DNA from: a virus | Taxonomy: Duplodnaviria; Caudoviricetes | IMG/VR virus record: IMGVR_UViG_3300043434_000734 | Location: 149,707-213,706 of that record | Length of the DNA stretch: 64,000 nucleotides | Strand: one strand, 5' to 3' | Shown: positions 2,346 through 55,574 of the stretch, piece after piece | Layout: every line of letters begins with the position of its first letter | Position numbering within the stretch: position 1 is the stretch's first letter | Program-made: the position numbers and the translations under genes | Notes under the pieces: generated by a model | The model's database searches: none | The model's input: only the letters and a program-made list of their open reading frames with translations | What the model was told of the DNA's origin: nothing

Positions 2346-3160
2346 TTTAAAAATATTGGCCGCCTATGGTCGATTAAAATAAACCACGAAAGTGGGATAA
2401 AGTGACGAGTCCTTGGTTGGGACAAGTTGCGGTTTCAGTAATGGAACTTGAGTAGGCAAGTGGAGTATCGTTGAACCTTAAGTACTGAGGGTAACACTTT
2501 AGGGAAAGTGGTTTGATGACTGAGCAATCCGAGTTGTTTGGTTGAGGTGGGAACACCAATAAGAATAATCCATAGAGTTATTGTGAGAAATATGGTTATC
2601 CGACTATATGATTACGTGATTCAATATGATGGGAATCTTAAAACCGAAAGGTATGGTGAAGTACGAGTGGTGTCGTTATCATCCTTTATTAAACTCTACC
2701 AAGGGTTTAGTTTTGAAGGGGTCCAAAAATATGGTAGCAGGGATGTTACAGAGAGTAGTTTAGTATCGAGTCGCTCAAAAGGTGGCTTGGCTAGGTGACG
2801 AACCACTACTTTCCAAATTCGGATAACTAAATTTTGTTAATTTTGGTTTAACAACTTAAAATCATACAAGAAAAAGTGTTCGTCAGTCGTTGTAGACAGG
2901 TGGCTACATAGTCGTGAGGGGTTCACGGCCACAAAGGGTCTCAAGCCCAATGTGATTTTTAAAAAAGTTCTCTAAACCCGCAAGGTTGAATCAGGGAGGC
3001 ATCTTTGATGAGTAATGAGTATTAAAAGAGTATATAACGACTCAAGGATTGGTTAATCTAATTGACCGCCGCTGATTGGTACTACTCAAAAGGTAGTGGA
3101 TATGGGAAGAATCAAATAATGTCCCTAAGTCAATCAAAAAATGGTGTAATCTCAGCCCTT
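2346..3160 (+). ncRNA. large structured ncRNA, GOLLD-like (ends approximate)
   Basis: ~800 nt without a credible ORF, G-richer than the flanks, many hairpins (ACCAC-GAAA-GTGG, ACC-GAAA-GGT, two CTCAAAAG-loop hairpins), own promoter, near tRNAs; size and context fit GOLLD, family not verified. Confidence 0.65.
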
Positions 3161-5729: not shown

Positions 5730-6130
5730 GGGGATGTCTGGTATTGATTTCAGGTATCAGGGATAAATGGCACGTAGTCAGAATTCATCTATGACTTAAA
5801 TCCACGGTGAAACATTTTAGACGGCAACGTTTACAACAATATGGAAATTGCAGGTTTACTTGCAACTTCTAAAGTAGCGGCCTAACCAAGTTAGCACTAC
5901 ACTCGGGTCGATGTACATATAACCTAGGAACAGAAGTACTTAAGGTGTGATACCACCTAAGAGTGTCAAAGGTCTCGTTCAGAGGGCTACCTTAAAGTGA
6001 ACTCGACACAGTTATAGGGAACGATGTTAAAATAGGAACCTTTTATTTGTCTGTTGTGAACTAACAGAATAAACGTGTAGTCATTTATTGTTGAACAGGA
6101 AAGACACGGGTTCGACTCCCGTCATCTCCA
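5730..6130 (+). ncRNA. ssrA: tmRNA
   Basis: 5' GGGGATG pairs with 3' CATCTCC-A with a G3.U pair, T-arm ACGGG-TTCGACT-CCCGT, tag ORF 5823-5885 GNVYNNMEIAGLLATSKVAA*. Confidence 0.93.
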
Positions 6131-6133
6131 CAT

Positions 6134-6166
6134 AAAAAAACCCACCTAAATGGTGGGTTTTTTATT
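6134..6166. terminator. bidirectional terminator
   Basis: AAAAAAACCCACC-TAAAT-GGTGGGTTTTTT. Confidence 0.85.
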
Positions 6167-7897
6167 TTCTATTAAACTCATTAGGTGTTCGGCTAATTCC
6201 ATATGTCCCACTCTTCCAGTGTGACCGTCCATAACTCCACCATTGGTTTCATCTTTAATTAAACTATATTTCTTATAAGGTATCATATTGTCAAAACATT
6301 TCTTCTTGTGATTGACGGAACCAAAATGTTTAATATTAAATTCGTTGTGTGCGAACCTTTGTCTCTCAGGTGTTCCGTATTCAATGTTGACAATTGCAAT
6401 TTTTTTACCATTATCCGCCAATTTTTTCATCTCAACTAAATCAACGTCGGTTTTTAAATCAACAACATAATCACAATTATTGTTAATCACTTCTTTTAAT
6501 TTATCATCGGTATCTCTCCAATTTGGTACCATTAAAGAATGTTTTAAATCAATACTTTCTTGTGACCATATGTTATTTGATACCACAATTTCAGGATCAA
6601 CCCAAGTCCAATGGTATATTTTATTTTTGGGTAATAAATTTTTAATCACATCCATAAATTGACTTATTTCTGTCCACCAAATTGAATGAGTGTCTCTATT
6701 AATCGACAATTGTTGGGTACTCGATAAATCTACATCGTCGTTTTGTTTTGGATGTGGTGTGTTTGGTAAGATATCAACAAAGGAATTTACATTATTCGCT
6801 AATTTAAATCTATTGATTGCTGTCCAACCAAATACCAAAATATCATTTGGTTTTATGGATTTGTAATTGTCCATAAATTTATCAAATATAGTGTAGTTAG
6901 AACATCCACCTATACCGTAGTTATGTAATTCAATGTCATATTTTTTAGAAATTATTTCACTGTAAGTTTCAGGTATGTCACCTAAAAAATCAAAATAGTT
7001 TTTTGCCCAAACCGTACCAGCATCAAAGTGCGATTTAAATGTTTTTGTATGTGAATCACCAAACGCAAATAATCTCGGTTTTAATCTATCCTCAATCATT
7101 TTAATTATTTTTTCACCATACATCTTATTACCAAAATAACCGGGATGTTTATCATCGGTAATACCGGGTACCTCATCTTTAATTGTTTGACCGTTGAATG
7201 TGCAGAACTGATTAACACAATTATATTCACCAAATTTTAAATTTTTTTTTGGGTCCAACAAAGAATAAAACTCATCGTATGGATTTTTCATACTCTCATC
7301 GTCAAACCAATAAAAGAATTCAATATTATTTTTTTCTAAAAAACTAAACAACCCAACAAGTTCACCTCTGTATCTATCAACATAGGCAACCGGATTGTGA
7401 TATTTTGATAAATATTCTTTAGTTTCGTCGGTAATTCTACCCTCAAAAAATTCACGTGAATACTTTATTTTATCTTTAGTGATAACTTCTTGTATCTGTA
7501 TTCCTGATAAATTACCAATATTTCTGTCATCGTCATATCTCACATTTGTAATTGCATAATCACCAATTTCATTATAATATTGGTCGACCCTATGTACTGG
7601 ACTTGTAATCTCCAATAAGAATAAAGTTTTTCTTGCTTTCTCAATACCAATCTCTTCAATATGTTCATACGTTCTTCTAACTAGTCTTGGTGCTCCCGAA
7701 CCCGAAAAAGCATCGTGTATTAATGAAACACCAAAATGGTTGGCGATGTATTTTGGATATGTGACATCTTTTTCATTATCCCATTCTATATTATATAATC
7801 TCTTATACTCATTTTTAATCATCCCTTGGTCTAAACCACCACCCGCAGTTAGTGAAGAACCATTAACATATATTCTTGTAAAGTTGTAATATTTCAT
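6146..7897 (-). CDS. tandem SGNH/GDSL-like domain protein
   Basis: VNGSSLT...KHPGYFGN and AFGDSHT...DGHTGRVGH; paralog of 30711-32204. Confidence 0.6.
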   Translation of the reverse strand: MKYYNFTRIYVNGSSLTAGGGLDQGMIKNEYKRLYNIEWDNEKDVTYPKYIANHFGVSLIHDAFSGSGAPRLVRRTYEHIEEIGIEKARKTLFLLEITSPVHRVDQYYNEIGDYAITNVRYDDDRNIGNLSGIQIQEVITKDKIKYSREFFEGRITDETKEYLSKYHNPVAYVDRYRGELVGLFSFLEKNNIEFFYWFDDESMKNPYDEFYSLLDPKKNLKFGEYNCVNQFCTFNGQTIKDEVPGITDDKHPGYFGNKMYGEKIIKMIEDRLKPRLFAFGDSHTKTFKSHFDAGTVWAKNYFDFLGDIPETYSEIISKKYDIELHNYGIGGCSNYTIFDKFMDNYKSIKPNDILVFGWTAINRFKLANNVNSFVDILPNTPHPKQNDDVDLSSTQQLSINRDTHSIWWTEISQFMDVIKNLLPKNKIYHWTWVDPEIVVSNNIWSQESIDLKHSLMVPNWRDTDDKLKEVINNNCDYVVDLKTDVDLVEMKKLADNGKKIAIVNIEYGTPERQRFAHNEFNIKHFGSVNHKKKCFDNMIPYKKYSLIKDETNGGVMDGHTGRVGHMELAEHLMSLIENKKPTI

Positions 7898-7941
7898 AAT
7901 AGAAATATAAATAAATAAAATTAAAAAGGGAATGTATTTAA

Positions 7942-8044
7942 ACGAACAAAGAGGTCTTTAGGACCCCCTTGTCGAGATTAAGAACACCTCCTTTTCGTTT
8001 ATATAAGTTATCGTTTAATGGCGACCAAACCAATTAAACTCTCT
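7942..8044 (-). ncRNA. candidate small RNA or 3' UTR element carrying an extended SD sequence
   Basis: TATTTATA motif upstream, 5' hairpin, AAAAGGAGGTGTTC with no start codon after it, terminator hairpin GGGGTC-CTAAA-GACCTC-TTTG. Confidence 0.55.
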
Positions 8045-8056
8045 TATAAATATCGT

Positions 8057-8665
8057 TTATTTTTTAATTAATCGTTCTTTTAATATATTTTTTACAGTTT
8101 CTTTTACTATAGATTCTTGTAATTTAACGTAACCTTGTTCTTTACCCAATTTTAAAACTTCATTGTAAATATCCTCAGTTATTTTAGTGTCATTCGGAGC
8201 CAAATACCTTATGTTTCTTAATTTACTTAATAATTCTGGTCCATAAATTTTACCATATTCGTCACCAAACAAAATAGTGTTCATTAAACCTATTTTGTTG
8301 TTTTTACAACCATAATCCCAATCATAGACTTTTTCATCACAATCTTTATAATTAAACGGTTTTGTTGGATTTTGTGCGGCTGGGTATCTTACTTTATAGT
8401 CAATAGTTGTTACAGATTTTTGTGGTTCGGTACTATTCGCTGATTGTTGAGTTGTTGACGATAATGTATCAGTTGTTAGATTCTTTTCATATGTTACATA
8501 ATCACCCAAATCGATTTTATTATGAAACATATTCCAAAATTTCTTTCTACCCTCCGGACTTTGCATATTTGTTTTGAAATAATCATATGTAAACTGTTTT
8601 CTTTGGTCAGAAAATTTTTCACCTAACTTATCCCATATTTTTTTTAATTCTAATTCGTTTACCAT
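8057..8665 (-). CDS. hypothetical protein
   Basis: 202-aa ORF. Confidence 0.75.
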   Translation of the reverse strand: MVNELELKKIWDKLGEKFSDQRKQFTYDYFKTNMQSPEGRKKFWNMFHNKIDLGDYVTYEKNLTTDTLSSTTQQSANSTEPQKSVTTIDYKVRYPAAQNPTKPFNYKDCDEKVYDWDYGCKNNKIGLMNTILFGDEYGKIYGPELLSKLRNIRYLAPNDTKITEDIYNEVLKLGKEQGYVKLQESIVKETVKNILKERLIKK

Positions 8666-12502: not shown

Positions 12503-13588
12503 TTAGAGGTCTTTTTTTATGTAATCCAATGCTGAAGATATCACTTGATGCATATCATAATATTTATATTCTGCCAACCTTCCACCAAAATGAATATTTT
12601 CTAACTTATCAACTTCCGATTTGTATTTTAAATATATATTATTATTAGTCTTATCGTTAACTGGATAATAAGGTTCCGTTTCGTTTACTTTATAATCTGT
12701 CGGGTATTCAAATGTTATCCAAGTATTTTCGGTAATCACATCTTTTTCGAAATGTTTATGTTCTATTATACGAGTGTACTGAGTTTCTGAATCGGTATAA
12801 TTCATAACTGCACAACCTTGATAGTTATCCGTGTCCTTTTTAAAGTGTTCAAATCGAGTTGTCTTATATTCCAATTCACCATATTTGTAGTTAAAAAACT
12901 TATCAATCGGACCAGTATATATTACTTTACTGTGTTTAGGTAATTCATCTTTAAAGTAATCCACACCTAACTTCACATCAATACCATTCAATAATTTTTC
13001 AAATATTTGTGTATAACCACCAATTGGTATCCCTTGGTATTTGTCATTAAAATAGTTATTATCATATGTTAACCTAAAAGGTAAACGAGTAATAATTTCT
13101 TTCGGTAGTTCTTTGGGGTCTTTCTTCCATTGTTTAGAGGTATAATGTTTAATTAATTTCTCATACACATCTTTACCCACTAATTTAATTGCCTGTTCTT
13201 CTAAATTGGTTATTTCAGTAATTTCTGAACTTTGTTCCTCAATTATTTTTTTAGCTTCATTAGGGTGAGTAACTCCCCACAATTTATTGAACGTCCACAT
13301 ATTAAATGGTAAAGCATAAATTTCACCTTTGTAATTGGCGACAATCCTTAAACTAAAATTATTAAATGTAACAAATTGATTTATCCATTCCCAAACTTCA
13401 TCGTTTGATGTATGAAATATATGTGGACCGTATGTGTGTATATTAATACCGTCTTTATTTTCGGTATGACAATTGCCACCAATGTGATTTCTATTTTCAA
13501 TTACACAAACCTTATAACCTTTCTTGGTCAACTCGTGTGCACATATTGAACCGTAAAGTCCCGCACCAACAATTAAATAATCGTACAT
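12503..13588 (-). CDS. glf: UDP-galactopyranose mutase
   Basis: LIVGAGLYG FAD motif, HIGGNC, YGPHIFHT, FGGRLAEYKYYDMHQVI. Confidence 0.96.
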   Translation of the reverse strand: MYDYLIVGAGLYGSICAHELTKKGYKVCVIENRNHIGGNCHTENKDGINIHTYGPHIFHTSNDEVWEWINQFVTFNNFSLRIVANYKGEIYALPFNMWTFNKLWGVTHPNEAKKIIEEQSSEITEITNLEEQAIKLVGKDVYEKLIKHYTSKQWKKDPKELPKEIITRLPFRLTYDNNYFNDKYQGIPIGGYTQIFEKLLNGIDVKLGVDYFKDELPKHSKVIYTGPIDKFFNYKYGELEYKTTRFEHFKKDTDNYQGCAVMNYTDSETQYTRIIEHKHFEKDVITENTWITFEYPTDYKVNETEPYYPVNDKTNNNIYLKYKSEVDKLENIHFGGRLAEYKYYDMHQVISSALDYIKKDL

Positions 13589-13589
13589 A

Positions 13590-14429
13590 TTAATTTTTTA
13601 AATGAATAAACCCATCTTTCCATATTGTAGGTATTTTAATCCAATCGTCACACCAAATATCTTTTGGGTCATCATTAACATCAGGACCAAACCAAGTTTC
13701 AGGTGAAACAACAACTTTTTTATCTGATCTTGATAGGTATGCTCCCCACCAAGAAAATGAAGAATTGGAAATAATAAAATGATCACATAACGACAATAAC
13801 CATAATGCGTCACAATCAACATAGTTTTCCACAAACACCAAGTTAGGAAACACTAAATTTTCTTTACACCAATTAATATCGTCACTTAGTACCATAATTT
13901 TATCACAATTTGGTAAATGATTATACGCTTCATTAATATAATCTACAGTTACGACAGGATGTCTTCTTGGTTGTGTTAAATAATCACCTCTACGCACATT
14001 TATTGCCCCAACAGTCGATTTATTTAAAAATGGAAAATCAATCAATGCCCTTTTAACAAATTCTTTAGTTGGTGAAAATAAATCTCTTATCACTTCACTA
14101 TAATTTTTAAAAAATTTATCACTTTGAAACCAGCCAGCATAGGCCGTTGGACAATCGTCATATGGCTTTACATTTTCATATGTGAAAGGGACCCAAACTG
14201 TTTTAGTATCTTCAGTTTGATTGGATAAGTTAATGTTAAAATCTAATTTTCTAAATAAGGTTTTTTCTAAATGACCACTAGATGATTCCGTTTTTGGTAC
14301 AACAAACTGCCGATTAAATTCAATGGATTTGGCATACGCGTGTGCAATTTGAAACATCATATTACCAGTTCTTCCTTGTAATCTACTTGTTATATAATTT
14401 GACTGTAACGTTGTACTATTTTTTATCAT
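13590..14429 (-). CDS. alpha-1,2-fucosyltransferase-like (GT11)
   Basis: GRTGNMMFQ, GWFQS, NVRRGDYL, ISNSSFSWWGAYL. Confidence 0.9.
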   Translation of the reverse strand: MIKNSTTLQSNYITSRLQGRTGNMMFQIAHAYAKSIEFNRQFVVPKTESSSGHLEKTLFRKLDFNINLSNQTEDTKTVWVPFTYENVKPYDDCPTAYAGWFQSDKFFKNYSEVIRDLFSPTKEFVKRALIDFPFLNKSTVGAINVRRGDYLTQPRRHPVVTVDYINEAYNHLPNCDKIMVLSDDINWCKENLVFPNLVFVENYVDCDALWLLSLCDHFIISNSSFSWWGAYLSRSDKKVVVSPETWFGPDVNDDPKDIWCDDWIKIPTIWKDGFIHLKN

Positions 14430-15093
14430 TAATTAAATTATTTTTTTTTACAACTTCATAACTACTTTTAAAAATTTGAACATCGACACTATTACCAGAT
14501 GCGTCTAAATCACTTTTTCCGGCTCGTTGTGGGACTGCAATAGGATAAATTAAATATTTTTTAATATCGTGACGTTGACCCAACCATCCATCGATGGCCG
14601 AATCTTGAAAAGGAACGTATTCGTCTAAAATTCGTTTTATCGCAGTTCTTCGATATCCGACTGCGTGAGTTGTTAAAACAGTTGGTGCTAACATCAGTGT
14701 GTTAGATACGATATCAACTTCTCTAATCGGATGTCCACCAAAATATATCATATCCCAATCGGGAAATTGACTCATTTCGTTTAACCCATTTTCACATAAT
14801 GTTATACCGGGTAATTGATTAGTGTCATTATAAAAATATGCGTCATCCTCAAATATAACAACATTATCTAAACCATCATCATATATTTTTTTAAATAATT
14901 TAAAATATGTTAAACCACAATAACCGTGTTTTTTTATTGGGTCTGGTTCGTTAATCGAATCTTCTGCGGAGACCCGCTCAAAAAATTCTTTTAAACCATA
15001 TTTTGACATTTCATTTTCAAACTCCTCACGTCTATCTGGTCGTCTATCTAAATTAATATAGTACCCCTTGGAAAAATATTTATCAATTCTCAT
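14416..15093 (-). CDS. GT25-family glycosyltransferase
   Basis: YINLDRRPDRR, VVIFEDDA. Confidence 0.85.
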   Translation of the reverse strand: MRIDKYFSKGYYINLDRRPDRREEFENEMSKYGLKEFFERVSAEDSINEPDPIKKHGYCGLTYFKLFKKIYDDGLDNVVIFEDDAYFYNDTNQLPGITLCENGLNEMSQFPDWDMIYFGGHPIREVDIVSNTLMLAPTVLTTHAVGYRRTAIKRILDEYVPFQDSAIDGWLGQRHDIKKYLIYPIAVPQRAGKSDLDASGNSVDVQIFKSSYEVVKKNNLINDKK

Positions 15094-15766
15094 TTAATAT
15101 TTTTTTACAATAATCAATAAAAACTTGTTGTTTATCCCAAACCCTTATTTGGAAATTATGAAATGTCCCACTTTCAAATTCGGTCCCATTACCGTAACCA
15201 AATGGTTTATAACCAAAGTCACCACCATATTGCCAAGTAATGTTGGTTAATGTTTTTGTGGGATATGATAATACAATTTTCCTACCTTGTTTTTCATTCT
15301 CTCTTATAAATTGTTCCGCAACATCAACCTCTGTCATATAACCATCGGGATTTGGGTAATGTGTAAATTTAAAATTTTTACAATTAGACTCCTCCCATAG
15401 TTTTCTGGTAAAACTTAGAAAACTTGGAGCTATAAATGGTGGTGTTTTATGTGGATTCACATCAAAAACGTTAGATGCTTGTGCATTACCATATAACGTA
15501 TTATTATCGGAAATGATTTGAATTGCCCTTGTAACACAATCGTGACTAATAGGTATACTATCGACATCAAAAAAAGTAATTGAATCCCAATCTTTTCTGT
15601 TTACTAAATATTCTTCAATTGCCTCAGCGTGCCTATCACTTCTCAGATTATCTTTAAATTGAATCTGTTCCAATTCAATTCCAAAAAAATCAAATACTTT
15701 TTTTTGTAAGTTGACAATTTCAAATGGTAAATCATTACCGTAAAAACTAACTACATTGTGTTTCAT
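15083..15766 (-). CDS. putative GT-A glycosyltransferase
   Basis: FFDVDSIP DxD motif; inside the glycosyltransferase operon. Confidence 0.5.
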   Translation of the reverse strand: MKHNVVSFYGNDLPFEIVNLQKKVFDFFGIELEQIQFKDNLRSDRHAEAIEEYLVNRKDWDSITFFDVDSIPISHDCVTRAIQIISDNNTLYGNAQASNVFDVNPHKTPPFIAPSFLSFTRKLWEESNCKNFKFTHYPNPDGYMTEVDVAEQFIRENEKQGRKIVLSYPTKTLTNITWQYGGDFGYKPFGYGNGTEFESGTFHNFQIRVWDKQQVFIDYCKKILNEN

Positions 15767-16948
15767 CTATAATTTACTTATTAAATCAACCCACATTTGG
15801 CCAATTTTATTAACATTAAAATTAGATATGATGTGATTCTTACCTCTATTTCTAATATCCTCTTTTATTTGTGGATTTGATTCCAAGAATTTTATCTTTT
15901 CAACTATATTGTCGGTTATAGTGAATTTCCCTTCTAAATCTTTTGTTAAAGGTTCATTTTGCATTTTTTCCACATCAACCCCTTCAGGGAAATCTAACCA
16001 CACACAATAGTTTTCAAAATTTTCAGGTAACGCACCTAACGGATAAGTTACAACAATTGCACCTAAAGCTATGGCTTCCGCAACAACACAAGAGAATGTG
16101 TCTTTATGTACATCTTGATATGGCGTATATAACGGGTAAATAAAATATTCACTTTCGGCGATATTTGTAAAAAGTGTCTTCTTATCTACACCATTGTGTA
16201 AATTAAAAAAACTATCTTGGTGATGATGAGTTGCCATTAAATAATCAAAAGCGTGAAACTCACTATCCTCAAAATTTAACTTCCTAACTGCTTCTATTGA
16301 AACATTACCACCTCTAGCCCAAGCTGCGTGAAAAACAAATTTGTGTGGTTTTCTTTTTGGTTTAGAATATAAAACTTCTTGAATCATTTCATCCATAACA
16401 GGATTAGGAATTAAAGAAATTTGTACATTTTTAATTGATGTTTCATTATTTTTTATTGAACTTGTTAAAGGACCGGTCATATTTTTTTCCCATTCGGAAA
16501 TATGCACAAACCCTAACGATAAATTGTTTTGTTTTACGTAATCCTTAATATGGTCAATGCCGTATATCCATTGCATATGTGACCAATATATTAAACCTTT
16601 AGTAACTTTGATTGGTAATTTATCATAATCCTGAAACCATAACATACTAATGAGGATATCAAACTCTTTATTTTCAATTCCGTCAAAGTTAATATTTGTG
16701 TACTTAACACCATAAAATTCTTCTCCGGGTGTGTAAACTCTACCCTTTTCTTTATATTCAATTTCAAGTTTTTCTTCCAATTTATCGGCAACAAATACAA
16801 CATCGTGCCCTTGCTTGGATAAGTATTCAGCGACTAATACTGAACTAGTGTCAGTCCCTGAACCGCCCCCATTTCCATATCTTAAATTGTACCCATTCAG
16901 GTAATTACTTCTTCTACTGTTACCAATTACTATTAATGCTATTCTCAT
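15767..16948 (-). CDS. GT-B (GT4-like) glycosyltransferase
   Basis: DTFSCVVAEAIALGAIVVTYPLGALPE. Confidence 0.8.
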   Translation of the reverse strand: MRIALIVIGNSRRSNYLNGYNLRYGNGGGSGTDTSSVLVAEYLSKQGHDVVFVADKLEEKLEIEYKEKGRVYTPGEEFYGVKYTNINFDGIENKEFDILISMLWFQDYDKLPIKVTKGLIYWSHMQWIYGIDHIKDYVKQNNLSLGFVHISEWEKNMTGPLTSSIKNNETSIKNVQISLIPNPVMDEMIQEVLYSKPKRKPHKFVFHAAWARGGNVSIEAVRKLNFEDSEFHAFDYLMATHHHQDSFFNLHNGVDKKTLFTNIAESEYFIYPLYTPYQDVHKDTFSCVVAEAIALGAIVVTYPLGALPENFENYCVWLDFPEGVDVEKMQNEPLTKDLEGKFTITDNIVEKIKFLESNPQIKEDIRNRGKNHIISNFNVNKIGQMWVDLISKL

Positions 16949-18201
16949 TAGATTGTTTTTTCGTATCTGTCACTCCATTGTTTATCCTCATCAAATAAAT
17001 ACATCACAATTTTATTCGGTTTTTCGATTGTTTCTAAAGTTAAAGTGGTTTTATTCATTTCTAAGTTAACATATTGTGGTTCCGATTCAATTGTAAAATC
17101 TTTACGATACAATTCAAGACCTGATAACGTATGAACAGCAAAAGTCATAAACTTAGGTTTTTTAAAGTCAAATCGTTTAAAAAATTCAACATCCCATTCT
17201 AATGATAATTCATATTTATTTTTAATAAATTGGTTTTCCCAATCCGAAGGGTTAGGTGGTTCGTTAACCTTTAATGTATAATCTTGGATTACACATTTTT
17301 TAAAATCAAAACCTCCATAAACTTCATAATCGTGTAATGTCCTAACCGTACCTAAACCATATTCACCCATATCAATTCCATATTCTTGGGTTCCGAATAG
17401 TTGTCTAGTTTTATTACGTGCAAAAACGTCACGTTCCCCACTCGTTTTTTTAGTTTCACTATTCACCCCGTGATCATCCCAATGTTTTACACGATAATTT
17501 CTAGTGTATTCGTGCCACATAATCATACGGTATGGACTATAAAAATCATAACCATTAGTGAATGCTCTAACACTTAATGTCGTTTCTTCGGTATACCCAC
17601 CAAAATAAATGTCAGGGTCGTACGGTACTTCTTTAATGAATTCACCTGAAGTAAAATAGAAGTGACCACTAATTGTTCTTGCCTTTATTACCCTATTTCT
17701 CGACTTGTAATCTTGTATATACCAAGGCATACTCATCAATAATCTATCACCACTAAATTCATATTGTGACATTAAACAAGGTGTAGGTATCCAAGTACTT
17801 TCTTCTGATTTGGGGTCAAATGGTGTACAATATGTTGAAATAACCGGTTTTTCCGATGTCCCCAATGCTTGGTTATAATCTTCTAAAACCATAACATCCC
17901 AATCTTGGACAAATCTATGGTGAGAGTCAATTTGTAACGTATACTCCTCATCATCGTACAATGTATTAGTGATATGACGTGCCCAACCAAGACCCTCACT
18001 TTCACTATAATGATGTTTACTTACCCTAAATTGTGGATTACCATCAAACATATCAATTGGTTCACTACTATCGTATTGCCAACAAATACCAAACACTAAA
18101 TTTTTAGGGTTTTTAGCTTTTTTTATCATATCCTCGATTGTGGGAACCAATTCAGGATCACGATATGAGGCTATTTGTACGAAAATTTTTTCTTTCTTCA
18201 T
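16948..18201 (-). CDS. GT60-like GlcNAc transferase (Skp1 Gnt1-like)
   Basis: IFVQIASYRDPEL, GLGWARH, YTLQIDSHHRF. Confidence 0.85.
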   Translation of the reverse strand: MKKEKIFVQIASYRDPELVPTIEDMIKKAKNPKNLVFGICWQYDSSEPIDMFDGNPQFRVSKHHYSESEGLGWARHITNTLYDDEEYTLQIDSHHRFVQDWDVMVLEDYNQALGTSEKPVISTYCTPFDPKSEESTWIPTPCLMSQYEFSGDRLLMSMPWYIQDYKSRNRVIKARTISGHFYFTSGEFIKEVPYDPDIYFGGYTEETTLSVRAFTNGYDFYSPYRMIMWHEYTRNYRVKHWDDHGVNSETKKTSGERDVFARNKTRQLFGTQEYGIDMGEYGLGTVRTLHDYEVYGGFDFKKCVIQDYTLKVNEPPNPSDWENQFIKNKYELSLEWDVEFFKRFDFKKPKFMTFAVHTLSGLELYRKDFTIESEPQYVNLEMNKTTLTLETIEKPNKIVMYLFDEDKQWSDRYEKTI

Positions 18202-42632: not shown

Positions 42633-43217
42633 TTATTTTTTGTTTTTTAATGTTTTTAAAAATGTTAAAAGATGTGTGTAAGAAGTTCCCTTAAGAAGGT
42701 TATGTTTTTTAAAGAAATAATTAACGTCATATGAAATAATACTTATTCGTTTAGCCACGTAAGTGTTATGTAAATTAATTTCTTTAGAATCGTTCATCGC
42801 ACTTAATTTCAGTTGCGGGTTATTGGTGACAGCCTCTTTTGGTACACAAAAGAAAGAGGCTATGAAATTAATGTCTATAAAACATAGTATAAAATAATCA
42901 AAGTCCTGCCAATCTCTAATGTTTGTGATTGAGTTTTTTCCGTATTTATCGACAATAGATGTTTTTACTTCAAAAAATGTTTCTCTATTGATGTGTAAAT
43001 CACCTCTATCAGATAATAAATCTCTATCTGTACTTCTCAAAAACGGTCTTAAATCGTATATAATTTTTTTCGGTAATAATTTTCCGTAAGTACACGGAGC
43101 ACAGACATTATGAATTTTAAGAATAAAATCCGACATCTTTAATTGGTAGTCCGAATCGGTAATATTATTACGTTTATTTTGTTTACTTCTTGCCTCAATC
43201 AATAGGTCTTTGTCCAT
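42633..43217 (-). CDS. PD-(D/E)xK restriction-endonuclease-like protein
   Basis: RGDL...FEVKTS, DFDYFILCF. Confidence 0.6.
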   Translation of the reverse strand: MDKDLLIEARSKQNKRNNITDSDYQLKMSDFILKIHNVCAPCTYGKLLPKKIIYDLRPFLRSTDRDLLSDRGDLHINRETFFEVKTSIVDKYGKNSITNIRDWQDFDYFILCFIDINFIASFFCVPKEAVTNNPQLKLSAMNDSKEINLHNTYVAKRISIISYDVNYFFKKHNLLKGTSYTHLLTFLKTLKNKK

Positions 43218-43254
43218 TTTGTTTAGATTAGTTATGCAATATTAATAAGGATAT

Positions 43255-43450
43255 TCTAATTTTCCAAAAAATTTTCTGGAATTTTTTTTTCGATTTCCAC
43301 ATAAAAAGTCAATTTTTGGGATTTTTTCTGGAAAAATTTCTGTCGAGGCATTGACCCCCCTTTTAGACCCCCCCAAAATACCCTATATAAGGGGGGATAC
43401 GGGAGGGGGGTCCCCCCACAGGGGTACGGGGGGAGGTGGATACCCCTATA
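43255..43450. other. A-tract region followed by G/C homopolymer runs
   Basis: Repeated TTTTCTGGA and A/T tracts, C-runs 43344-43369, G-runs of 6,3,6,4,6 at 43391-43433. Confidence 0.8.
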
Positions 43451-43614
43451 CCTGCCACACAAATAATCCAATGGTCCACCTGATCACACATCTTGTTATT
43501 TAGACTGATAATAAATTAAAAAAAAGTATCATATAAATTTGTTATATAATAAAACATATGTTATATTTGTATACACAATCAGAACGGGGACAGGTCTACT
43601 GAACACCACACACT

Positions 43615-43878
43615 ATGAGTACTTTATTTGTAACAATGTCAAATTTGAGAAACGAGTTAATGAAGAAGTATGGTAACAATCGTATCTTCTTAAAAGAAAT
43701 TATGAACTCGGATGAGGTAATGGTCATTTGTTTTAATGTCGGAGGTAACTACGATTCAATTGTTGGGGAGGTTGTATTAACTGATGAGGGTTGGACACTT
43801 GGGGAGTTTAACCACGAAGTCTTTGAGATGTTATTAGACCACCAAAAATCGTTTACTGAAATTGGAGTTTTGAATTAG
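43615..43878 (+). CDS. hypothetical early protein
   Basis: Own promoter and terminator. Confidence 0.8.
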   Translation: MSTLFVTMSNLRNELMKKYGNNRIFLKEIMNSDEVMVICFNVGGNYDSIVGEVVLTDEGWTLGEFNHEVFEMLLDHQKSFTEIGVLN

Positions 43879-44245
43879 ATTTGTTGTTCATCCAAAGTCA
43901 TCCCTCACTGAGAAATCGGTGGGGGATTTTTGGTTTATGGGGTAAATAGTTGACGGTAGTCAGGAAGGGGTGAAATGTTGTGTGGCAGTCTCACCTGTAA
44001 CGTCCCCTGATCTTATTGTGTGGCAAGTGATGTAAAATGTGGATAACTTTATTTGGTATAATCAAAATAGTTGTATATCTTTGTGGTTTGGTTTGTGTGC
44101 CACACAAGTTATGGGTACGTCCTCCGTCCCACCCCAAAAGTTAAGGGTATGTTAAATAAAAAATAATTTAATTTTTTTTATATAATAATTTGGATGGTAA
44201 ATTAGAATTGACTACCTTTACATAACACAAAAAAACACACACATT

Positions 44246-44812
44246 ATGACAACCCAAGTAAAAACCCAAATCGTAGTTAATGACCAAGAAATGGAATTGG
44301 TATTTCGTGAAGTTGAAAACCAAGTTCCCGTTCCATTTATTTCAGTTACTTTAAAAACCGAGTTTAAGGGTATGTTAAAGAAATGTAAGGAAGATGGAGA
44401 AATCAATCCTTACTACAAATCTTTACAAAAGGTTTCGACCAAAACTTTTCTTTTAGTAACTGACTATGTAAAAAGAGTCAAGGGAAATCGTACGAAAGAA
44501 GGTAAAGACCCCGAATCTTTTGTAGTTGAATCCCCAAGTGGTAAAGTTCATATTTCTAAATGTCTTTTAACTGACACCGAAACACACACCAAACGTTATG
44601 TAATGTTAGAGTGGTTTCCCGAAACAAAAGGTTCTACTGAATATTTTCAAGGTAACGACCGAATCGGTAAAGAGTTATTCTCAAAGTGGATGACCAATTA
44701 TGACACCTCAAATGAGAAACAAGGTTTGGAGAGAGAGGTTAAACCAATTACCCCACTATTCGAAAGTATCGTTTCCTTTCGAGTGAATGGAATGGAATAC
44801 ATTAGAGGTTAG
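44246..44812 (+). CDS. hypothetical early protein
   Basis: 188 aa; own promoter and terminator. Confidence 0.85.
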   Translation: MTTQVKTQIVVNDQEMELVFREVENQVPVPFISVTLKTEFKGMLKKCKEDGEINPYYKSLQKVSTKTFLLVTDYVKRVKGNRTKEGKDPESFVVESPSGKVHISKCLLTDTETHTKRYVMLEWFPETKGSTEYFQGNDRIGKELFSKWMTNYDTSNEKQGLEREVKPITPLFESIVSFRVNGMEYIRG

Positions 44813-45082
44813 TTCCCCTACTAACCGAAAAGACCACCCCGAAAGGAGTGGTTTTTTTTTGTCCAAAAAAAATTCTGAGGTTCGGAAAAAATTGTGTGGC
44901 AATTGTCATACATTAACACCATTTTAACAATTTAAATTTGGTGGGACGAAGACAAGAAAAAATTATTGTGTGGCAAATGCCAAATAAAAATTCGGTCGAG
45001 AAAAACCTTAACAAAGTGTTAACAAATAAAATCGTTGGATAATGATTATTGTTGTATATTTGTCATACAAACAAACCACGTT

Positions 45083-45277
45083 ATGACATCAACATTTTTA
45101 CCCATTGAGGAAATCCCAATGAAGTGTTTTAGAATCAAATTTCCCAACAACACCTACGATGTGTTCATCCCCGATACTACTGACAAGAGTAGTTGTGTGA
45201 ACATTACCGATGAAAATGGTGACCAAATCCCATTCAAGGATTGGGATAACGTTCTACAATTTTTACCAAACATTTAA
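45083..45277 (+). CDS. hypothetical early protein
   Basis: ATG 45083 after promoter at 45055. Confidence 0.7.
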   Translation: MTSTFLPIEEIPMKCFRIKFPNNTYDVFIPDTTDKSSCVNITDENGDQIPFKDWDNVLQFLPNI

Positions 45278-45529
45278 CAAATTAACCCCTTACGAAAGTG
45301 AGGGGTTTTTTTATGTGTAACCTTACACGTCCCTGAGAAATTTGTGTGGCGCCGATGTGGATAACTTTATTTTGTATAATAAAAATAGTTGTATACCTTT
45401 GTGGTCGGTTTTAATTTTGCCATACAAAATCCTCCACGGGTTCAGGACGTCCTAAAAAAATTAATAAAATGTTTGGTCTATAATAAATTATCTTGTATAT
45501 TTGTATCAACAAACAAACACAAATACATT

Positions 45530-45871
45530 ATGGAAACATTAGTAACTACCATTGTTAGAGATGAAAAAATTGAAAGTCTAAGAAAAGAATTGAATCAATT
45601 AGCACTTGAAAAATTCATAGATGAATTGTCATTCGAGGATATTAGAATAACAAGTTGTATCCATACAATTACGGGTATCAATTATTTGAAAATGTATGTT
45701 CATCTTCCCGAGTATCGTTCAAACACAAAGGACAAAGTGATTAATAAAAAACAAACAGCACATTTAGGTAAGTCGTCCAAAGTTTTCCCTTTAATGGTTA
45801 ATGAGAATTTTCGTAACTATATGGTAATAAAAATGAAAGATACACTTACACGAAAATTTTTAAACAAATAG
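45530..45871 (+). CDS. hypothetical early protein
   Basis: ATG 45530 after promoter at 45496. Confidence 0.8.
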   Translation: METLVTTIVRDEKIESLRKELNQLALEKFIDELSFEDIRITSCIHTITGINYLKMYVHLPEYRSNTKDKVINKKQTAHLGKSSKVFPLMVNENFRNYMVIKMKDTLTRKFLNK

Positions 45872-45875
45872 AGAT

Positions 45876-46082
45876 ATGAAAAAGACAACATTTTGGTTTT
45901 CAACTATTACGTTAATGTTTATGGGTACGTTATTATTCTTTGTAGGTTTAGAGAACTACCAAGATGAAATGTTACCAAAAGGAGTTAGAGAAAGTTTTTT
46001 GGTTGTGAGTGGTTTTGGTTTATTGGTTAGTATGTTTGGTTGTGTGTGTGGGGTGTTTAGTGATAAACGCCATTTGATTTAG
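45876..46082 (+). CDS. 2-TM small membrane protein
   Basis: Two hydrophobic helices. Confidence 0.75.
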   Translation: MKKTTFWFSTITLMFMGTLLFFVGLENYQDEMLPKGVRESFLVVSGFGLLVSMFGCVCGVFSDKRHLI

Positions 46083-46373
46083 TTCGTTTTTTTTGTTGTT
46101 CACATTAGAATCCCTCGGAGTTTTACTTCGGGGGATTTTTGTTTACCACAGATTTTCCGTCCTGATCCGCATCTTATATTGTGTGGCAACCATCTCACCG
46201 TGATTGTGATCAGACGGGATTTATTTGTGTGGCATTTGCCAGATGAATTGATCACCCGGATCAAACGGTCCCCTTATTTAGAATGAAAATAAATTAAAAA
46301 AAAGTATATAATTTATTTGGTGTATAATAAATTATGTATTATATTTGTGTATACAAAAAAACACAAACACACG

Positions 46374-47186
46374 ATGAAAATTACAAACGACTCAATCTGT
46401 TCGATGATAGTTTCAAAGGACTTCAAAGACCACCAAAGTAAATTCACATTAAACGTTCTTGAAACTAAAGGTTTAAACGATAACCAAAGTAGAATGTTAG
46501 GTGAGAAATTGAATTTCTACGAACAATCAGGTTTCCGTATGTTAGTATTCTCTAAAAAGTCAAAAGAGAACTTGGAAAACTATCTTATCCCTAAAGATAT
46601 CCGTTTAGATGTGTTGAGAAATTTACCTAATAGAAAAGATGTTATTCAAATTGATGAGAACAATTGTATCAAATATATGAAGGATGATGATACATTATGT
46701 TTTGCTACCCATTATAGAAAGTCGTCTGACTTCGGTACTAAACCTACTTGGGATAATATGATTCACACACATTTCTTTTATGTGGATTTAAAGACTGGTC
46801 ATATGGGATTTGATGAGTCAAACACATACACTAAAGAAGATGTTAAAGATGTCAAGACATTCATTGAGAAATTCTATTCACGTTTCTTAGTTGTAGTTAC
46901 TTACTTGGAATTAACCGATGTGACTTTGGATATTGTTGAGGGTGTGTTAGGTAAGAATAAAAATAAGAAGTCTAATTTGACTATTAGTAATAGTTCACGT
47001 TTCAATGTCATACACGTTAATACGAATTGGAACACAATGGTTATCAACGTTAGTACGTTTGGAGTACGTGGACATTGGAGATTACAACAATGTGGTGTGG
47101 GTAGAAGTCATTACAAGTATGTGTGGGTTAAACCTTATGAGAAAGGTCTCACTCGTAGACTACCTCAAAAAGAATTAGTTGGTTAA
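46374..47186 (+). CDS. phage hypothetical protein with VRGHWR motif
   Basis: C-terminal VRGHWRLQQCGVGRSHYKYVWVKPYEKG. Confidence 0.8.
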   Translation: MKITNDSICSMIVSKDFKDHQSKFTLNVLETKGLNDNQSRMLGEKLNFYEQSGFRMLVFSKKSKENLENYLIPKDIRLDVLRNLPNRKDVIQIDENNCIKYMKDDDTLCFATHYRKSSDFGTKPTWDNMIHTHFFYVDLKTGHMGFDESNTYTKEDVKDVKTFIEKFYSRFLVVVTYLELTDVTLDIVEGVLGKNKNKKSNLTISNSSRFNVIHVNTNWNTMVINVSTFGVRGHWRLQQCGVGRSHYKYVWVKPYEKGLTRRLPQKELVG

Positions 47187-47447
47187 TTGATTGTGTGTGT
47201 GGAACCCCCGATGAGAGTCGGGGGTTTTTTTGTGTCTGAAGGGTTCCGTCTCCTGAGCCATATCATATTTTGTGTGGCAGGTTCACCGTCAGGGCCGGCT
47301 GTGATCATCTTGTGTGGCAATTGTCATACATAGTATCCTTGCCAATCAATGTTGTGATTGACTTCAGGGTAGACCAAAAAAATAAATTAAATAATATTTG
47401 GTGTATAATAAATTATGTATTATATTTGTGTATTAAATGATAATAAA

Positions 47448-48059
47448 ATGAGAAAGAAAAAAATCGATTTAAGTTTAGTCACAATCCATACGAGTTCACT
47501 TGTTAGTGTTGACCCAAGAAATGATTTAGACGGCACTAATATCTATAACACAGAATTCATTCAGTTTATTACTGGTGAAATAAAAATGTACAATTTGGAT
47601 TCAGATAATGATGACGTTATCATTTTGGGTAATTTTAAATTGATGTTATTGTGGGGTACGGAAGAAATGATTTATGAATCGTTAGATAGTCACAGCAGAA
47701 ATACTGTAACATATGGTGACGAATTGTTCGATGAGGATATGAATGTGAAGGATGAATATTATGATTTGATGTGTGAAATATATGAGAATCGATTTTTAAT
47801 TGTTGAGGAGATTAATATAAATGAAGAATACCGAGGTCAGGGAGTGGTAAAAAAACTAATCGACACTATTAATTTAACATATCGTTGTCCAATGGTTTTA
47901 ATACCTTTTCCACTACAATATCAACCAACTCACGATAATGAAGAAGAATTAAAACTACTTCCCCCAATTAATGGTCCGATGAGAAAGGTTGTTAATTCCT
48001 ATAAGAGATGTGGGTTTAAGAAACCTAAACCGAGTTCACTCCTAATGGTTAAATGGTAA
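47448..48059 (+). CDS. GNAT-like acetyltransferase
   Basis: ININEEYRGQGVVKKLI and SYKRCGF. Confidence 0.65.
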   Translation: MRKKKIDLSLVTIHTSSLVSVDPRNDLDGTNIYNTEFIQFITGEIKMYNLDSDNDDVIILGNFKLMLLWGTEEMIYESLDSHSRNTVTYGDELFDEDMNVKDEYYDLMCEIYENRFLIVEEININEEYRGQGVVKKLIDTINLTYRCPMVLIPFPLQYQPTHDNEEELKLLPPINGPMRKVVNSYKRCGFKKPKPSSLLMVKW

Positions 48060-48359
48060 TCATAGTCCCACTCCAATCGAGTGGGATTTTTGTTTACCAC
48101 AGATTTTCCGTCCTGATCCGCATCTTATATTGTGTGGCAAAGAAACCTCCACCGTGATCTGTGCCGATCAGGTGCAATATGTTGTTTGGCAATTGCCACT
48201 CAATGTTCGGTGCTGTCACCGTCGCCTAATTCGTGTGGATAATGTGTGGAAAAAAAATAAAAAAAAAGTTTAAATATTTTTGGATATAATAAAAAAGGTT
48301 GTATCTTTGACATATCAAACAACCAAAGCGGTGGACAGCGTTACTGAACAAAATTTACT

Positions 48360-49094
48360 ATGTCATATTCAGGCAAAAAAATTAATGAAATTTACTCTAC
48401 TAAGGAGTACGCGAAATTCAAGTTAATCAAAGGTAATCGCGTTATCAAAAATCCTAAGATTAAAAAACTTGTTAAGTCGATGACTGAAAACGGGTGGTTA
48501 CCTGGCTCTTATGTAATCGTTAATAGCAAATGGGAAATCATCGATGGCCAACATAGAATCTTGGCAGGTATGCAATGTAATCTACCTATTGTTTATACAA
48601 TGGAGAAGAAAGCTGATGAGAAAGTAATGCGTGGTTTGAATACCGCAGGAGATAATTGGCAATTGAACGACCACTTACACGGATTTGTGGAAGATGGAAA
48701 TGAGCACTACATTAAGTTAGATAACTTGATGAAGGCTTTTCCCGAGTTAAAAATTACGGAGGCGATGATGTTATGTAAAAACGCTTATGTTGGTATTCCT
48801 CGTGGAACATTCGAGAGTGGTGAATTCACAACTAAGAATATGACCATAGCACATCAGTGGGGTGAGTACATTATGCGATTGAAACCTTTCGCTAAATTCT
48901 TTAACACGGGTATCTTTGTTAGAGCGTTAGTATGTTGTCTTACAAAGGAAGGTTTTAACTTCGAGGACTTTATGAGAAAGATTGAACTTCGACCAACTTC
49001 GTTAGTTAAGTGTGGAACGAGAGAACAATACATCGAATTATTTGAGAGTATCTACAACTATCGTAGAAGCGATAAATTGAACTTACGATACTAA
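48360..49094 (+). CDS. ParB-N-like domain protein
   Basis: GNR...LVKSM...VIVN...IIDGQHRI. Confidence 0.8.
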   Translation: MSYSGKKINEIYSTKEYAKFKLIKGNRVIKNPKIKKLVKSMTENGWLPGSYVIVNSKWEIIDGQHRILAGMQCNLPIVYTMEKKADEKVMRGLNTAGDNWQLNDHLHGFVEDGNEHYIKLDNLMKAFPELKITEAMMLCKNAYVGIPRGTFESGEFTTKNMTIAHQWGEYIMRLKPFAKFFNTGIFVRALVCCLTKEGFNFEDFMRKIELRPTSLVKCGTREQYIELFESIYNYRRSDKLNLRY

Positions 49095-49337
49095 GAGTTT
49101 GGTTGTGGTTAGAAAATTGGGGTGTTCGAAAGGACATCCCTTTTTTTATGCGTATGACACAACGCAGCTTGAGTCGCCGGCGTCAGGGAATGTTGTTTGG
49201 CAATTATACGTATTACATATGTTGCCACAAGAATTTGTGGCCAGGTCCCTGACGTAAAACTTTTAACAAAACATTCACAATAAAACTTGTAATATAATCG
49301 TTTAGTATGTATATTTGTATCACTAAACCCACTAACA

Positions 49338-49550
49338 ATGATTAACCACTCTTTCACAAAAGAACAACTAATTGGTCGTCGTATCGTATTACATAAGATG
49401 AACGATGACCCAAAGACAAACCCAATTCAACCCAATACAATGGGAACGATAATATCCGTAGATGATATGGACTATTATCAAGTGAAGTGGGACAATGGTA
49501 GAACTTTAAATCTACTACCCGATGAAGATGAATTTGAATTTATTAACTAA
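49338..49550 (+). CDS. DUF4314-like protein
   Basis: GRRIVLHKMNDDP...GTIISVDD...VKWDNGRTLNL. Confidence 0.8.
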   Translation: MINHSFTKEQLIGRRIVLHKMNDDPKTNPIQPNTMGTIISVDDMDYYQVKWDNGRTLNLLPDEDEFEFIN

Positions 49551-49561
49551 CACACAATACA

Positions 49562-49705
49562 ATGAAAGAAATGTTTACCACTCTTAGAGATGTCTACAAG
49601 GAAGACCCTAAGGATTTTATCATCACATTATTATTTGGAATCTTTATCTTTACGATGACTTGGTTCCTATTATGGTTTCACGGAACATTTATGTACGATA
49701 TGTGA
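49562..49705 (+). CDS. 47-aa single-TM protein not in the ORF track
   Basis: MKEMFTTLRDVYKEDPKDFIITLLFGIFIFTMTWFLLWF... Confidence 0.65.
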   Translation: MKEMFTTLRDVYKEDPKDFIITLLFGIFIFTMTWFLLWFHGTFMYDM

Positions 49706-49915
49706 ATGTTTCCCGTTTAAACTTTCTAACCCTCGACTTGTTCGGGGGTTTTTTGTTTCTGTGAACCTCATCAAAAATCTGAGTCTGTAAAAAATTGTGT
49801 GGCAACTGCCAATCAAAAAGTTATCAGAACCTTCTGATAAAAAAATAATTAATGAATTGTTTGGTATATAATATATTTTGTTGTATATTTGAGTACACAT
49901 TTAAACACAAATATT

Positions 49916-50116
49916 ATGGAAGGAATTCAATTTGACCGAAACCGACACGGAGGACTCTATGACAGAGGTAGTGCTGACAAATACTATGGTAGATGTAAAT
50001 CACCACATTGGTACCCCAAGGGTACGGGTCGTGGTAAACCTATTACTGACCTTACCGAAGAGGAAATCAAGGAGTACAATTTAGGTTACGATGAAGAAAC
50101 CGAAACCAAATTTTAA
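49916..50116 (+). CDS. hypothetical early protein
   Basis: HGGLYDRGSADKYYGR; own promoter and terminator. Confidence 0.8.
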   Translation: MEGIQFDRNRHGGLYDRGSADKYYGRCKSPHWYPKGTGRGKPITDLTEEEIKEYNLGYDEETETKF

Positions 50117-50362
50117 TGAAAGGGGAACGAAAGTTCCCTTTTTTTATTTCACCTGAAGTTACTGTGCGACGGGGGAAAGTTGTTTGGCAAGTTCACCTTC
50201 ACTGATCAGCACTGATCTATTTGTTTGGCAATTGCCACAAGATATTGTACAGTGGATCACAGGTGAATTTTCTTTCACAAAATTTTAACAAAAAAAGATT
50301 AAATAAATTTGGATGTATAAATAAAATAGTTGTATATTTGTGTACACAAAACAAACAACGTT

Positions 50363-51133: not shown

Positions 51134-51336
51134 TTTGTTTGTATGTGTGTGTGAAACCCCTGATGAGAGTCGGGGGTTTTTTTGTTGTCATACAACTCCA
51201 CTTGAGTCTGAAGACAAAATATATTGTGTGGCAAGTATTACATCTTAACAAAAATTTAACAAAAAAAATAATTAATATATTTTGTTTCTAATAAAAATGT
51301 ATTATCTTTATATCACTAAACAAACACATCTACACA

Positions 51337-51537
51337 ATGGAACAAACAAACATTATCCGCAAAAAGGTTACCTTCGGTAACGACAACGAAATTAAAGGTT
51401 GGATTAAAACAACTGATGGTACAAAAACTAACTTCCTTATTAATGAGGGTGAAATCAAACAATGGGGAAATGCAACATCAACTGACACTAATCCATTCTT
51501 ATTAGGTTTACTTGAAATGTTGTATAGTCAAGAATAG
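51337..51537 (+). CDS. hypothetical early protein
   Basis: Own promoter and terminator. Confidence 0.75.
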   Translation: MEQTNIIRKKVTFGNDNEIKGWIKTTDGTKTNFLINEGEIKQWGNATSTDTNPFLLGLLEMLYSQE

Positions 51538-52127: not shown

Positions 52128-52233
52128 ATTTATTCCCTCACAGAAATGTGGGGGATTTTTTAAAAAAATTAAATAATAAATTTGGTGAATGATATAATTT
52201 TTGTATCTTTACATCATCAAACAAATAACACAT

Positions 52234-54703: not shown

Positions 54704-54705
54704 CT

Positions 54706-54924: not shown

Positions 54925-54925
54925 T

Positions 54926-55573: not shown

Positions 55574-55574
55574 T

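Follow-up and report, generated by a model that had tools for sequence, protein, structure and literature searches.

Why should a phage whose genes are essentially devoid of Shine-Dalgarno (SD) sequences keep, between two of its genes, a long and perfect complement of the 3' tail of the 16S rRNA? The question is raised by a 159-nt gap (7898-8056) between two minus-strand genes in a 64,000-nt stretch of a Caudoviricetes virus (IMG/VR record IMGVR_UViG_3300043434_000734, positions 149,707 to 213,706), hereafter called the window, which is phage-like and has a G+C content of 31%. The original prediction on this DNA had placed in the gap a small RNA (sRNA) complementary to the anti-SD of the Bacteroidota, acting as a ribosome sponge or as a switch of the anti-SD state. 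Our analysis confirmed the observation, and supported the interpretation in part and sharpened it: the gap very probably houses an independent, conserved sRNA gene on the minus strand, whose product appears to mimic the initiation region of the host rpsU gene, in phages that themselves encode the ribosomal protein bS21. To the overall reading, i.e. that the RNA is a trans-acting extended SD which would engage free anti-SD tails and perturb the bS21 homeostasis of the host, we assign a probability of about 45%.

On the minus strand the elements follow each other in the order upstream stop codon, promoter-like box GATATTTATA, hairpin 1, GAUAA, SD block AAACGAAAAGGAGGUGUUC, AUCUC, G+C-rich hairpin and UUU (Table 1). 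The box motif (TATTTATA, 8052-8045), the hairpin, the 13-mer and the terminator hairpin were all found where they had been predicted on this strand. The SD block includes AAAAGGAGGUGUUC (7995-7982) and forms 13 consecutive pairs with the 16S tail GGAACACCUCCUUUCU, the sequence that had been given for the Bacteroidota; the 16S gene of Pseudozobellia thermophila (Flavobacteriaceae) was confirmed to end in it. A single copy of the 13-mer AAAGGAGGTGTTC is present in the window, where 100 shuffles give an expectation of 0.01, and no other site on either strand of the 64 kb is predicted to bind the 16S tail as strongly as the SD block (-22.6 kcal/mol). The block is an extended SD of the rpsU type, a term applied here to sites that have at least nine consecutive pairs with the 16S 3' tail typical of the host phylum or bind it at -13 kcal/mol or lower. 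The genes of the window do lack SD motifs, as had been claimed: SD-like 4-mers (GGAG, GAGG or AGGA) occur at -20 to -4 in a single one of the 75 open reading frames (ORFs), and an energy of -7 kcal/mol is attained by none.

The element is shared by many viral contigs. In a metagenomic relative with a flanking protein 90% identical, the intergenic region was conserved at about 95%, better than the neighbouring coding DNA, and the element was present beside all the homologues of the downstream SGNH hydrolase gene that were examined, down to 59% identity; it was absent from a relative of 47% identity (L001), where the neighbour is different and divergent. Scanning IMG/VR with the SD block retrieved viral contigs of low GC, about 45 in number and up to 335 kb long, with different gene neighbourhoods, and an SD-blind scan, using only the box and the hairpin-1 loop, matched at least 118 contigs, of which the great majority had the element; most of the new contigs inspected from the latter contained the whole module, the remainder being chance matches to the short pattern. 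Carrier contigs have 28-42% GC. A covariance model built from 41 sequences found exactly one copy, on a single strand, in each of 100 loci (67-139 bits), the match of model R1 to the window covering 7932-8056 of the minus strand with 130.7 bits, and the records that could be searched whole had one copy per genome. The genes upstream fall into at least five clusters without BLAST links to each other, and the downstream neighbour varies as well, being either a gene or, in at least 25 loci, a second terminator followed by a convergent transfer-messenger RNA (tmRNA) gene.

Neither Rfam families nor GenBank phages accounted for the element. Nothing was found at the site when the whole window was searched against Rfam 15 at the gathering threshold, and a permissive Rfam search of 7850-8100 gave Yfr11 as the best match (21.7 bits, gathering threshold 44, E = 0.24) and otherwise noise. 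GenBank phages gave no match by flanking DNA (near and distant modes), by the SGNH protein or by the RNA itself, and no description of this sRNA was found in the literature. A bacterial origin was rejected: the scan of 185,579 species genomes returned two true copies only, both on small contigs binned with Flavobacterium or Bacteroidetes metagenome-assembled genomes (MAGs) and both resembling binned phage fragments. The family seems undescribed and, although its kind (phage sRNA or molecular-mimic decoy) is known, the target proposed for it, the 16S anti-SD, would be new.

Base pairing is conserved across the family. Among 80 distinct sequences 97.5% of the modelled cells were paired, as against 42-63% when the partners were slid, and both sides had changed in 92 cells compared with 22 in shuffles. 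In hairpin 1 the figure for paired cells was 96%, with changes on both sides in 7/10 modelled pairs; a U-A pair has become C-G in L007, for example, and the closing pair alternates between U-G and U-A. In hairpin 3 both sides had changed in 2/9 modelled pairs and many pairs alternate between G-C and G-U; its stem is kept while the apical sequence and the loop vary with lineage (CUAAA, UUCG, CAA, UUUAAC, UAAUUG). The metagenomic relative with the 90% identical flanking protein has a 2-nt deletion on one side of a helix that is compensated by an AA-to-GG change on the other. The frequent G-U pairs indicate that the minus strand is the transcribed one; the fold is also stronger on it (z = -3.7, against -1.7 on the plus strand). 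With the covariance model matching this strand only, and the box and terminator recurring, the proposal of a discrete minus-strand sRNA gene gained support, and the idea raised along with it, that a plus-strand transcript might imitate the 16S tail, was rejected.

These results also bear on the notion that the locus makes no functional RNA, the anti-SD match being due to chance in an intergenic terminator or promoter region, or to a site that acts in the DNA. A 13-mer match can arise when many windows are scanned, and the A-rich and U-rich bases of terminators often look like SDs; even so, a module kept in over 100 contigs, its substitutions compensated and its G-U pairs specific to one strand, and an intergenic region better conserved than the coding sequence flanking it, leave this explanation hardly any probability, and the covariation and breadth of conservation have effectively refuted it.

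Is the complementarity to the 16S tail itself conserved? Pairing with the Flavobacteriaceae tail was predicted for every one of the 60 distinct SD blocks, with energies between -13.6 and -25.7 kcal/mol. The SD-unbiased sample defines a family-wide core (G)AAAGGRGG with variable extensions, so that of the predicted conservation of the 13-mer the anti-SD complementarity stood, maintained with lineage-specific extensions, and the 13-mer did not, only a core of 8 to 10 nt being common to the family. The nucleotides following GGAGG form the loop of a second, predicted hairpin and vary with lineage (UGUUC, UUGUUCC, AUGUUCC, UAUUCC, UAUCC, GGUUC). In all 30 SD-unbiased variants this loop adds pairing to the GGAAC part of the tail, -6.6 kcal/mol compared with -2.1 for composition-matched shuffles, a test whose P value is inflated by the relatedness of the sequences and which to that extent counts for less in favour of pairing. 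The GAAAG upstream of hairpin 2 also pairs with the tail.

The original prediction had described the SD block as unpaired, which overstates the case: in predicted folds the block is partly paired. A 5-bp hairpin 2, predicted in all members, joins GAGGU to the invariant AUCUC, and in the window pairing with CAUUCCCUUUUU is possible too. The long hairpin SD:CAUUCCCUUUUU, which belongs to the read-through context of the window, was discarded as a family feature, being confined to the SGNH-gene context, weaker in L007 and L010 and absent elsewhere. Both strands of hairpin 2 are almost invariant and covariation is therefore uninformative about it. GGAGG and AUCUC never covary, though helices 1 and 3 covary freely, which points to a constraint on the sequence itself. 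The predicted cost of opening the SD block is about +5 kcal/mol, against about -20 gained on binding the tail. We consider the chances slightly better than even that the RNA acts by pairing with the 16S tail.

An ordinary sRNA that binds another RNA target, such as CU-rich sites in host or phage mRNAs, or a protein, could owe its SD likeness to that target or to its folding, or the UUGGUC loop and GAUAA could be its active parts. The invariant hexaloop of hairpin 1 and the conserved GAUAA, neither of which is explained by pairing with the anti-SD, speak for such an sRNA, as does the possible intramolecular partner of every part of the SD block. We nevertheless think it unlikely, though worth keeping in mind, because the 16S tail vastly outnumbers any other complement in a cell with mRNAs that shun SD and anti-SD-like motifs, because the pairing energies match those of rpsU and the extensions track the phylum-specific GGAAC, and because no alternative target was identified. 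Complementarity of the sRNA to the phage tmRNA or to the GOLLD RNA did not exceed that of shuffled controls. In related complete genomes AAAGGAGGT was not enriched relative to a reversed control. The apical part of hairpin 1, GGU[UUGGUC]RCC, and GAUAA are conserved as strongly as the SD block and are explained by none of the models considered here; possible contacts for them are a different partner or a different region of the ribosome.

An SD followed at the usual distance by a codon could also mean translation. The statement that no start codon stands at SD spacing held in 76/80 distinct homologues, in which ATG, GTG and TTG were all lacking and AUC took that position, 6-9 nt (most often 8) past GGRGG. 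One could therefore imagine that a ribosome recruited by the SD translates a mini-ORF from this AUC and melts the terminator, as in a leader or attenuator, or that the RNA is a tiny mRNA for a hexapeptide; the frame of the window type, AUC-UCG-ACA-AGG-GGG-UCC-UAA, does end in the terminator loop, and the downstream gene is here on the same strand. Yet the AUC-opened frame varies from 1 to 83 codons across the homologues, its peptide is not conserved, and translation starts very poorly at AUC. The gene downstream is preceded by a separate box and is missing from most contexts, the at least 25 loci with a second terminator and a convergent tmRNA gene among them. Coding from AUC was rejected on the length of the frame, and the 31-aa TTG ORF (7938-8033) because a 2-nt indel breaks it in L002; the check for a hidden micro-ORF thus revealed none that is conserved, and a role in cis or in coding is very improbable. 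The element carries an extended SD and is no translation initiation region.

What, then, might an extended SD without a message do? On the ribosomes of Bacteroidia the anti-SD is hidden by bS21, bS18 and bS6 (PMC7797042), and a strong SD is confined to rpsU, which bS21-free ribosomes translate (PMC9976891, PMC13000453). McNutt et al. gave -14 to -21 kcal/mol for its extended SD (PMC9976891), and cryo-electron microscopy revealed a clash between bS21 and the 13-bp SD-anti-SD helix on rpsU mRNA, through which 65% of replete ribosomes lose bS21 (PMC13000457). The initiation region of rpsU in Flavobacteriales (PMC9976891, PMC13000453, PMC13000457) and the sRNA are alike in their extended SD of 9-13 nt or more that pairs through the GGAAC part, in their range of energies and in the spacer of 6-10 nt to the P-site codon, and a stretch of 13 nt in some variants of the RNA is identical to one in an actual rpsU region. 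Host rpsU genes read GAAAGGAGGUUGU-N6-AUG (Pseudozobellia) and GAGAGGAGGUGUC-N6-AUG (a Flavobacterium MAG), and the sRNAs GAAAGGAGGUUGUUCC-AC-AUC (L097) and GAAAAGGAGGUGUUC-UUA-AUC (window). Unlike rpsU, the RNA is encoded by a phage, and has AUC for AUG and no ORF; a stable hairpin follows the pseudo-start directly, another hairpin is conserved at the 5' end, and the terminator belongs to the gene itself. The role of the RNA would be that of a trans-acting competitor and not that of a message. The anti-SD complementarity on which the proposed sponge or switch rested is upheld, and the data agree better with specific mimicry of the host rpsU initiation region than with a general sponge. The SD-less genes, the TAnnTTTG promoters on early-type genes and the two copies in Flavobacterium/Bacteroidetes MAG fragments are clues to the host phylum.

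Some freshwater phages encode bS21, as the original prediction had noted, and the present clade proved to do so. All seven records that span both expected positions encode bS21 above the Pfam cut-off, in fixed synteny, on the opposite strand and 36-40 kb from the RNA; three further contigs have both features, as judged by their names being in both lists, which makes 10/10 informative records. Another six records show one feature only, and each of these contigs ends before the expected place of the other. No ORF of the window stood out as bS21 in a composition screen for small, very basic ORFs, as expected, since the synteny places the gene about 30 kb before the first base of the window. The five phage bS21 genes examined have no SD, unlike host rpsU.

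The same association would be expected if the RNA bound the bS21 protein, hairpin 2 being an internal SD-anti-SD mimic that sequesters host bS21 or that chaperones or stores the phage one. There is a precedent in OLE RNA, whose P6 is an SD/anti-SD mimic bound by bS21 (PMC12054373), and in the phage RNA too an SD-like strand is predicted to pair with an anti-SD-like strand, both nearly invariant, in a non-coding RNA linked to bS21. OLE, however, is a 600-nt RNA of Bacillota without homology in sequence or structure. The helix here has only 5 bp and its anti-SD-like strand is AUCUC, not CCUCC, an imperfect match, and protein binding gives no role to the complementarity of the loop to GGAAC or to the GAAAG pairing upstream of the helix, evidence that favours the real 16S tail as partner. 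We regard binding of bS21 by this hairpin as quite unlikely.

If the RNA does engage the 16S tail, the following course of events can be envisaged. Transcription would start at a phage-type promoter box and end at the terminator hairpin of the gene, giving a self-contained, structured non-coding RNA of about 105 nt. Its functional core would be a copy of the signal that ribosomes of Flavobacteriales reserve for rpsU (9 to 15 pairing positions, -14 to -26 kcal/mol), and AUC at the distance of a start codon, followed by a stable hairpin, would ensure that no protein is made. Base-paired in trans to the anti-SD tails of 30S subunits in the host, the RNA might rival host rpsU mRNA for subunits that lack bS21 and thereby prevent the replenishment of host bS21; it might also, or instead, hold or push host bS21 off the ribosomes. 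Competition or eviction is conceivable because, according to the published cryo-electron microscopy, the 13-bp helix and bound bS21 are mutually exclusive. In either case the advantage would go to the SD-less bS21 of the phage, which would escape the rpsU circuit. A specific role as rpsU decoy or in bS21 exchange is put forward tentatively, at clearly less than even chances. More speculative still, and on balance unlikely, is a two-part kit for ribosome takeover in phages of SD-blind Bacteroidia, combining an SD-independent bS21 with an sRNA that serves as a free-standing extended SD, pulls the 16S tail from its platform pocket, displaces host bS21 and starves the rpsU loop.

Several points weigh against the reading of the RNA as a trans-acting extended SD. 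Shared ancestry in a single phage clade may be enough to explain why the RNA and bS21 occur together, there being no informative record that lacks either feature. Each part of the SD block has a possible internal partner (GAGGU:AUCUC, and UAAACGA:UCGUUUA beyond hairpin 3), covariation cannot test either helix, and the conservation of the block could come partly from folding or from a protein site. In two Cytophagales MAGs, Ekhidna (L348) and Cyclobacteriaceae (L350), rpsU has no SD (about -3 kcal/mol), in contrast to the two Flavobacteriales examined, and the logic of a decoy would be inapplicable to such bacteria, if they are hosts. What can be said of promoter, transcription start, 3' end and timing is all deduced from sequence. 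A decoy must also match the level of bS21-free subunits, which raises a concern about stoichiometry, and eviction of bS21 should impair translation of SD-less mRNAs, including those of the phage (PMC9976891), unless phage bS21 rebinds quickly.

McNutt et al. speculated that phages with bS21 encode a factor that aids exchange of the protein and that the autoregulation of the host is a counter-defence (PMC9976891). The RNA is a concrete candidate for the exchange factor predicted by this Flavobacterium johnsoniae group, and would address why many aquatic phages encode bS21 and how the phage copy could replace the host protein. The bS21-encoding freshwater Bacteroidetes phages of Chen et al. 2022 (PMC9723584) and Mizuno et al. 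2019 (PMC6375957) are apparently the same phage group, with genomes of up to about 335 kb, low GC, an origin in freshwater metagenomes, bS21 and predicted Bacteroidota hosts in common. Chen et al. describe the protein only: no small RNA, non-coding RNA, intergenic element or tmRNA is mentioned and Shine-Dalgarno appears just as background to bS21 (PMC9723584).

The hidden anti-SD of the Flavobacteriales has, as far as is known, one purpose, which is the sensing of bS21 shortage through rpsU. Imitation of a natural ligand of a core machine by an sRNA, which titrates or reprogrammes it, is familiar: 6S RNA mimics open promoter DNA, CsrB and RsmZ sponge CsrA, and fragments derived from tRNAs or mRNAs bind small ribosomal subunits. 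The phage RNA follows the same logic and differs from these decoys in its target, its phage origin and its link to bS21, all of which are new. We know of no natural sRNA shown to work by pairing with the 16S anti-SD, and the present one, if the proposal is true, would be the first to target it. Confirmation would establish pairing with the rRNA tail to change ribosome composition as a new mode of sRNA action and add a layer to phage control of translation; even with another mechanism, this is an undescribed and widespread family of structured phage RNAs.

The box at the head of the sRNA, with the consensus (G)ATATTTAT(A), is present at the start of every homologue and is invariant in 41 homologues retrieved with a pattern that did not contain it. 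The same motif precedes many genes of the window and is shared with other transcription units of the genome: TATTTAT occurs within 45 nt upstream of 20/75 ORFs of the window, against a background of 1.45% (about 18-fold enrichment), usually 4-18 nt before the ATG. The box probably acts as a promoter. It also precedes the endolysin gene of the window and, in exact form, 3/5 of the phage bS21 genes examined in relatives, with degenerate versions before the other two; the sRNA may be called late on the strength of the box that it shares with these genes. The TATTTAT-type box of the phage bS21 genes (L160, 1440-1490; L161, L264, L266 and L267) is often preceded by a host-type TAnnTTTG motif, which suggests that these genes have dual promoters.

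Table 1. Positions of the sRNA gene, its parts and other features of the window (position 1 is the first nucleotide of the window)
Feature	Position	Strand	Remarks
Upstream gene	8057-8665	minus	202 aa; stop codon 8057-8059
Promoter-like box GATATTTATA	8045-8054	minus	starts 3 nt past the stop codon of the upstream gene
Predicted sRNA, about 105 nt	7938-8041	minus	ends approximate: start from the box, end from the terminator
Hairpin 1, GUUUAAUUGGU-UUGGUC-GCCAUUAAAC	8013-8039	minus	variable stem closing on invariant GGU[UUGGUC]RCC
GAUAA	8008-8012	minus	conserved, single-stranded; ATAA invariant, first base nearly so (alignments A4, A5)
SD block AAACGAAAAGGAGGUGUUC	7982-8000	minus	7982-7994 is the 13-nt complement of the 16S tail
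AUCUC	7974-7978	minus	invariant; predicted partner of GAGGU (hairpin 2)
Hairpin 3, CGACAAGGGGGUC / CUAAA / GACCUCUUUGUUCG, then UUU	7940-7974	minus	intrinsic-terminator-like; stem 7974-7943
Box TATTTATA and ATG of the SGNH/GDSL-hydrolase gene	7897-7913	minus	box 7913-7906, ATG 7897-7895; outside the sRNA
Downstream gene	6146-7897	minus	583 aa, SGNH/GDSL-like hydrolase
tRNA cluster	97-951	plus	Val-TAC, Gly-GCC, Gly-TCC, Gln-TTG, Ser-GCT
GOLLD RNA	2751-3158	plus	Rfam RF02032, 314 bits, model positions 1-416
tmRNA gene	5730-6133	plus	Rfam, 83 bits
UDP-galactopyranose mutase	12503-13588	minus	
GT11 fucosyltransferase-like gene	13590-14429	minus	
GlcNAc-transferase	16948-18201	minus	
Small-gene block	43200-58000	plus	host-type promoters
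ORF-poor gaps in the block	49095-50362, 54303-55574		about 1.27 kb each
Repeated motif acggggacaggt.t.ctgaaca	~43580-43614, 48325-48359, 53977-54011	plus	before ORFs starting at 43615, 48360, 54012

Searches of the neighbouring genes against PHROGs and Pfam had little yield, and the 202-aa upstream protein has no relatives in IMG/VR. The window contains three further kinds of RNA gene, namely five tRNA genes, a full-length GOLLD RNA that lies between the tRNA cluster and the protein-coding genes, and a phage tmRNA gene with the tag GNVYNNMEIAGLLATSKVAA predicted by ARAGORN. At least 25 related contigs have the sRNA and the tmRNA gene in convergent orientation, separated by only 23-81 nt; here the SGNH hydrolase gene is inserted between the two. 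The operon that ends at the sRNA includes glycan-related auxiliary genes (12503-18201).

A second class of genes, at 43-58 kb, has promoters of the Bacteroidota TTG / TAnnTTTG type instead of the box, suggesting early and late promoter classes, the early-type genes being those with host-type promoters and not those with TATTTAT boxes. The genes with host-type promoters make up a block of small genes with the arrangement TTG ... TATATTTG and long A/C-rich leaders such as caaacaaacaaa. This block is interrupted by two ORF-poor gaps and contains three copies of the motif acggggacaggt.t.ctgaaca, each situated before an ORF, which may be a regulatory site or an RNA element.

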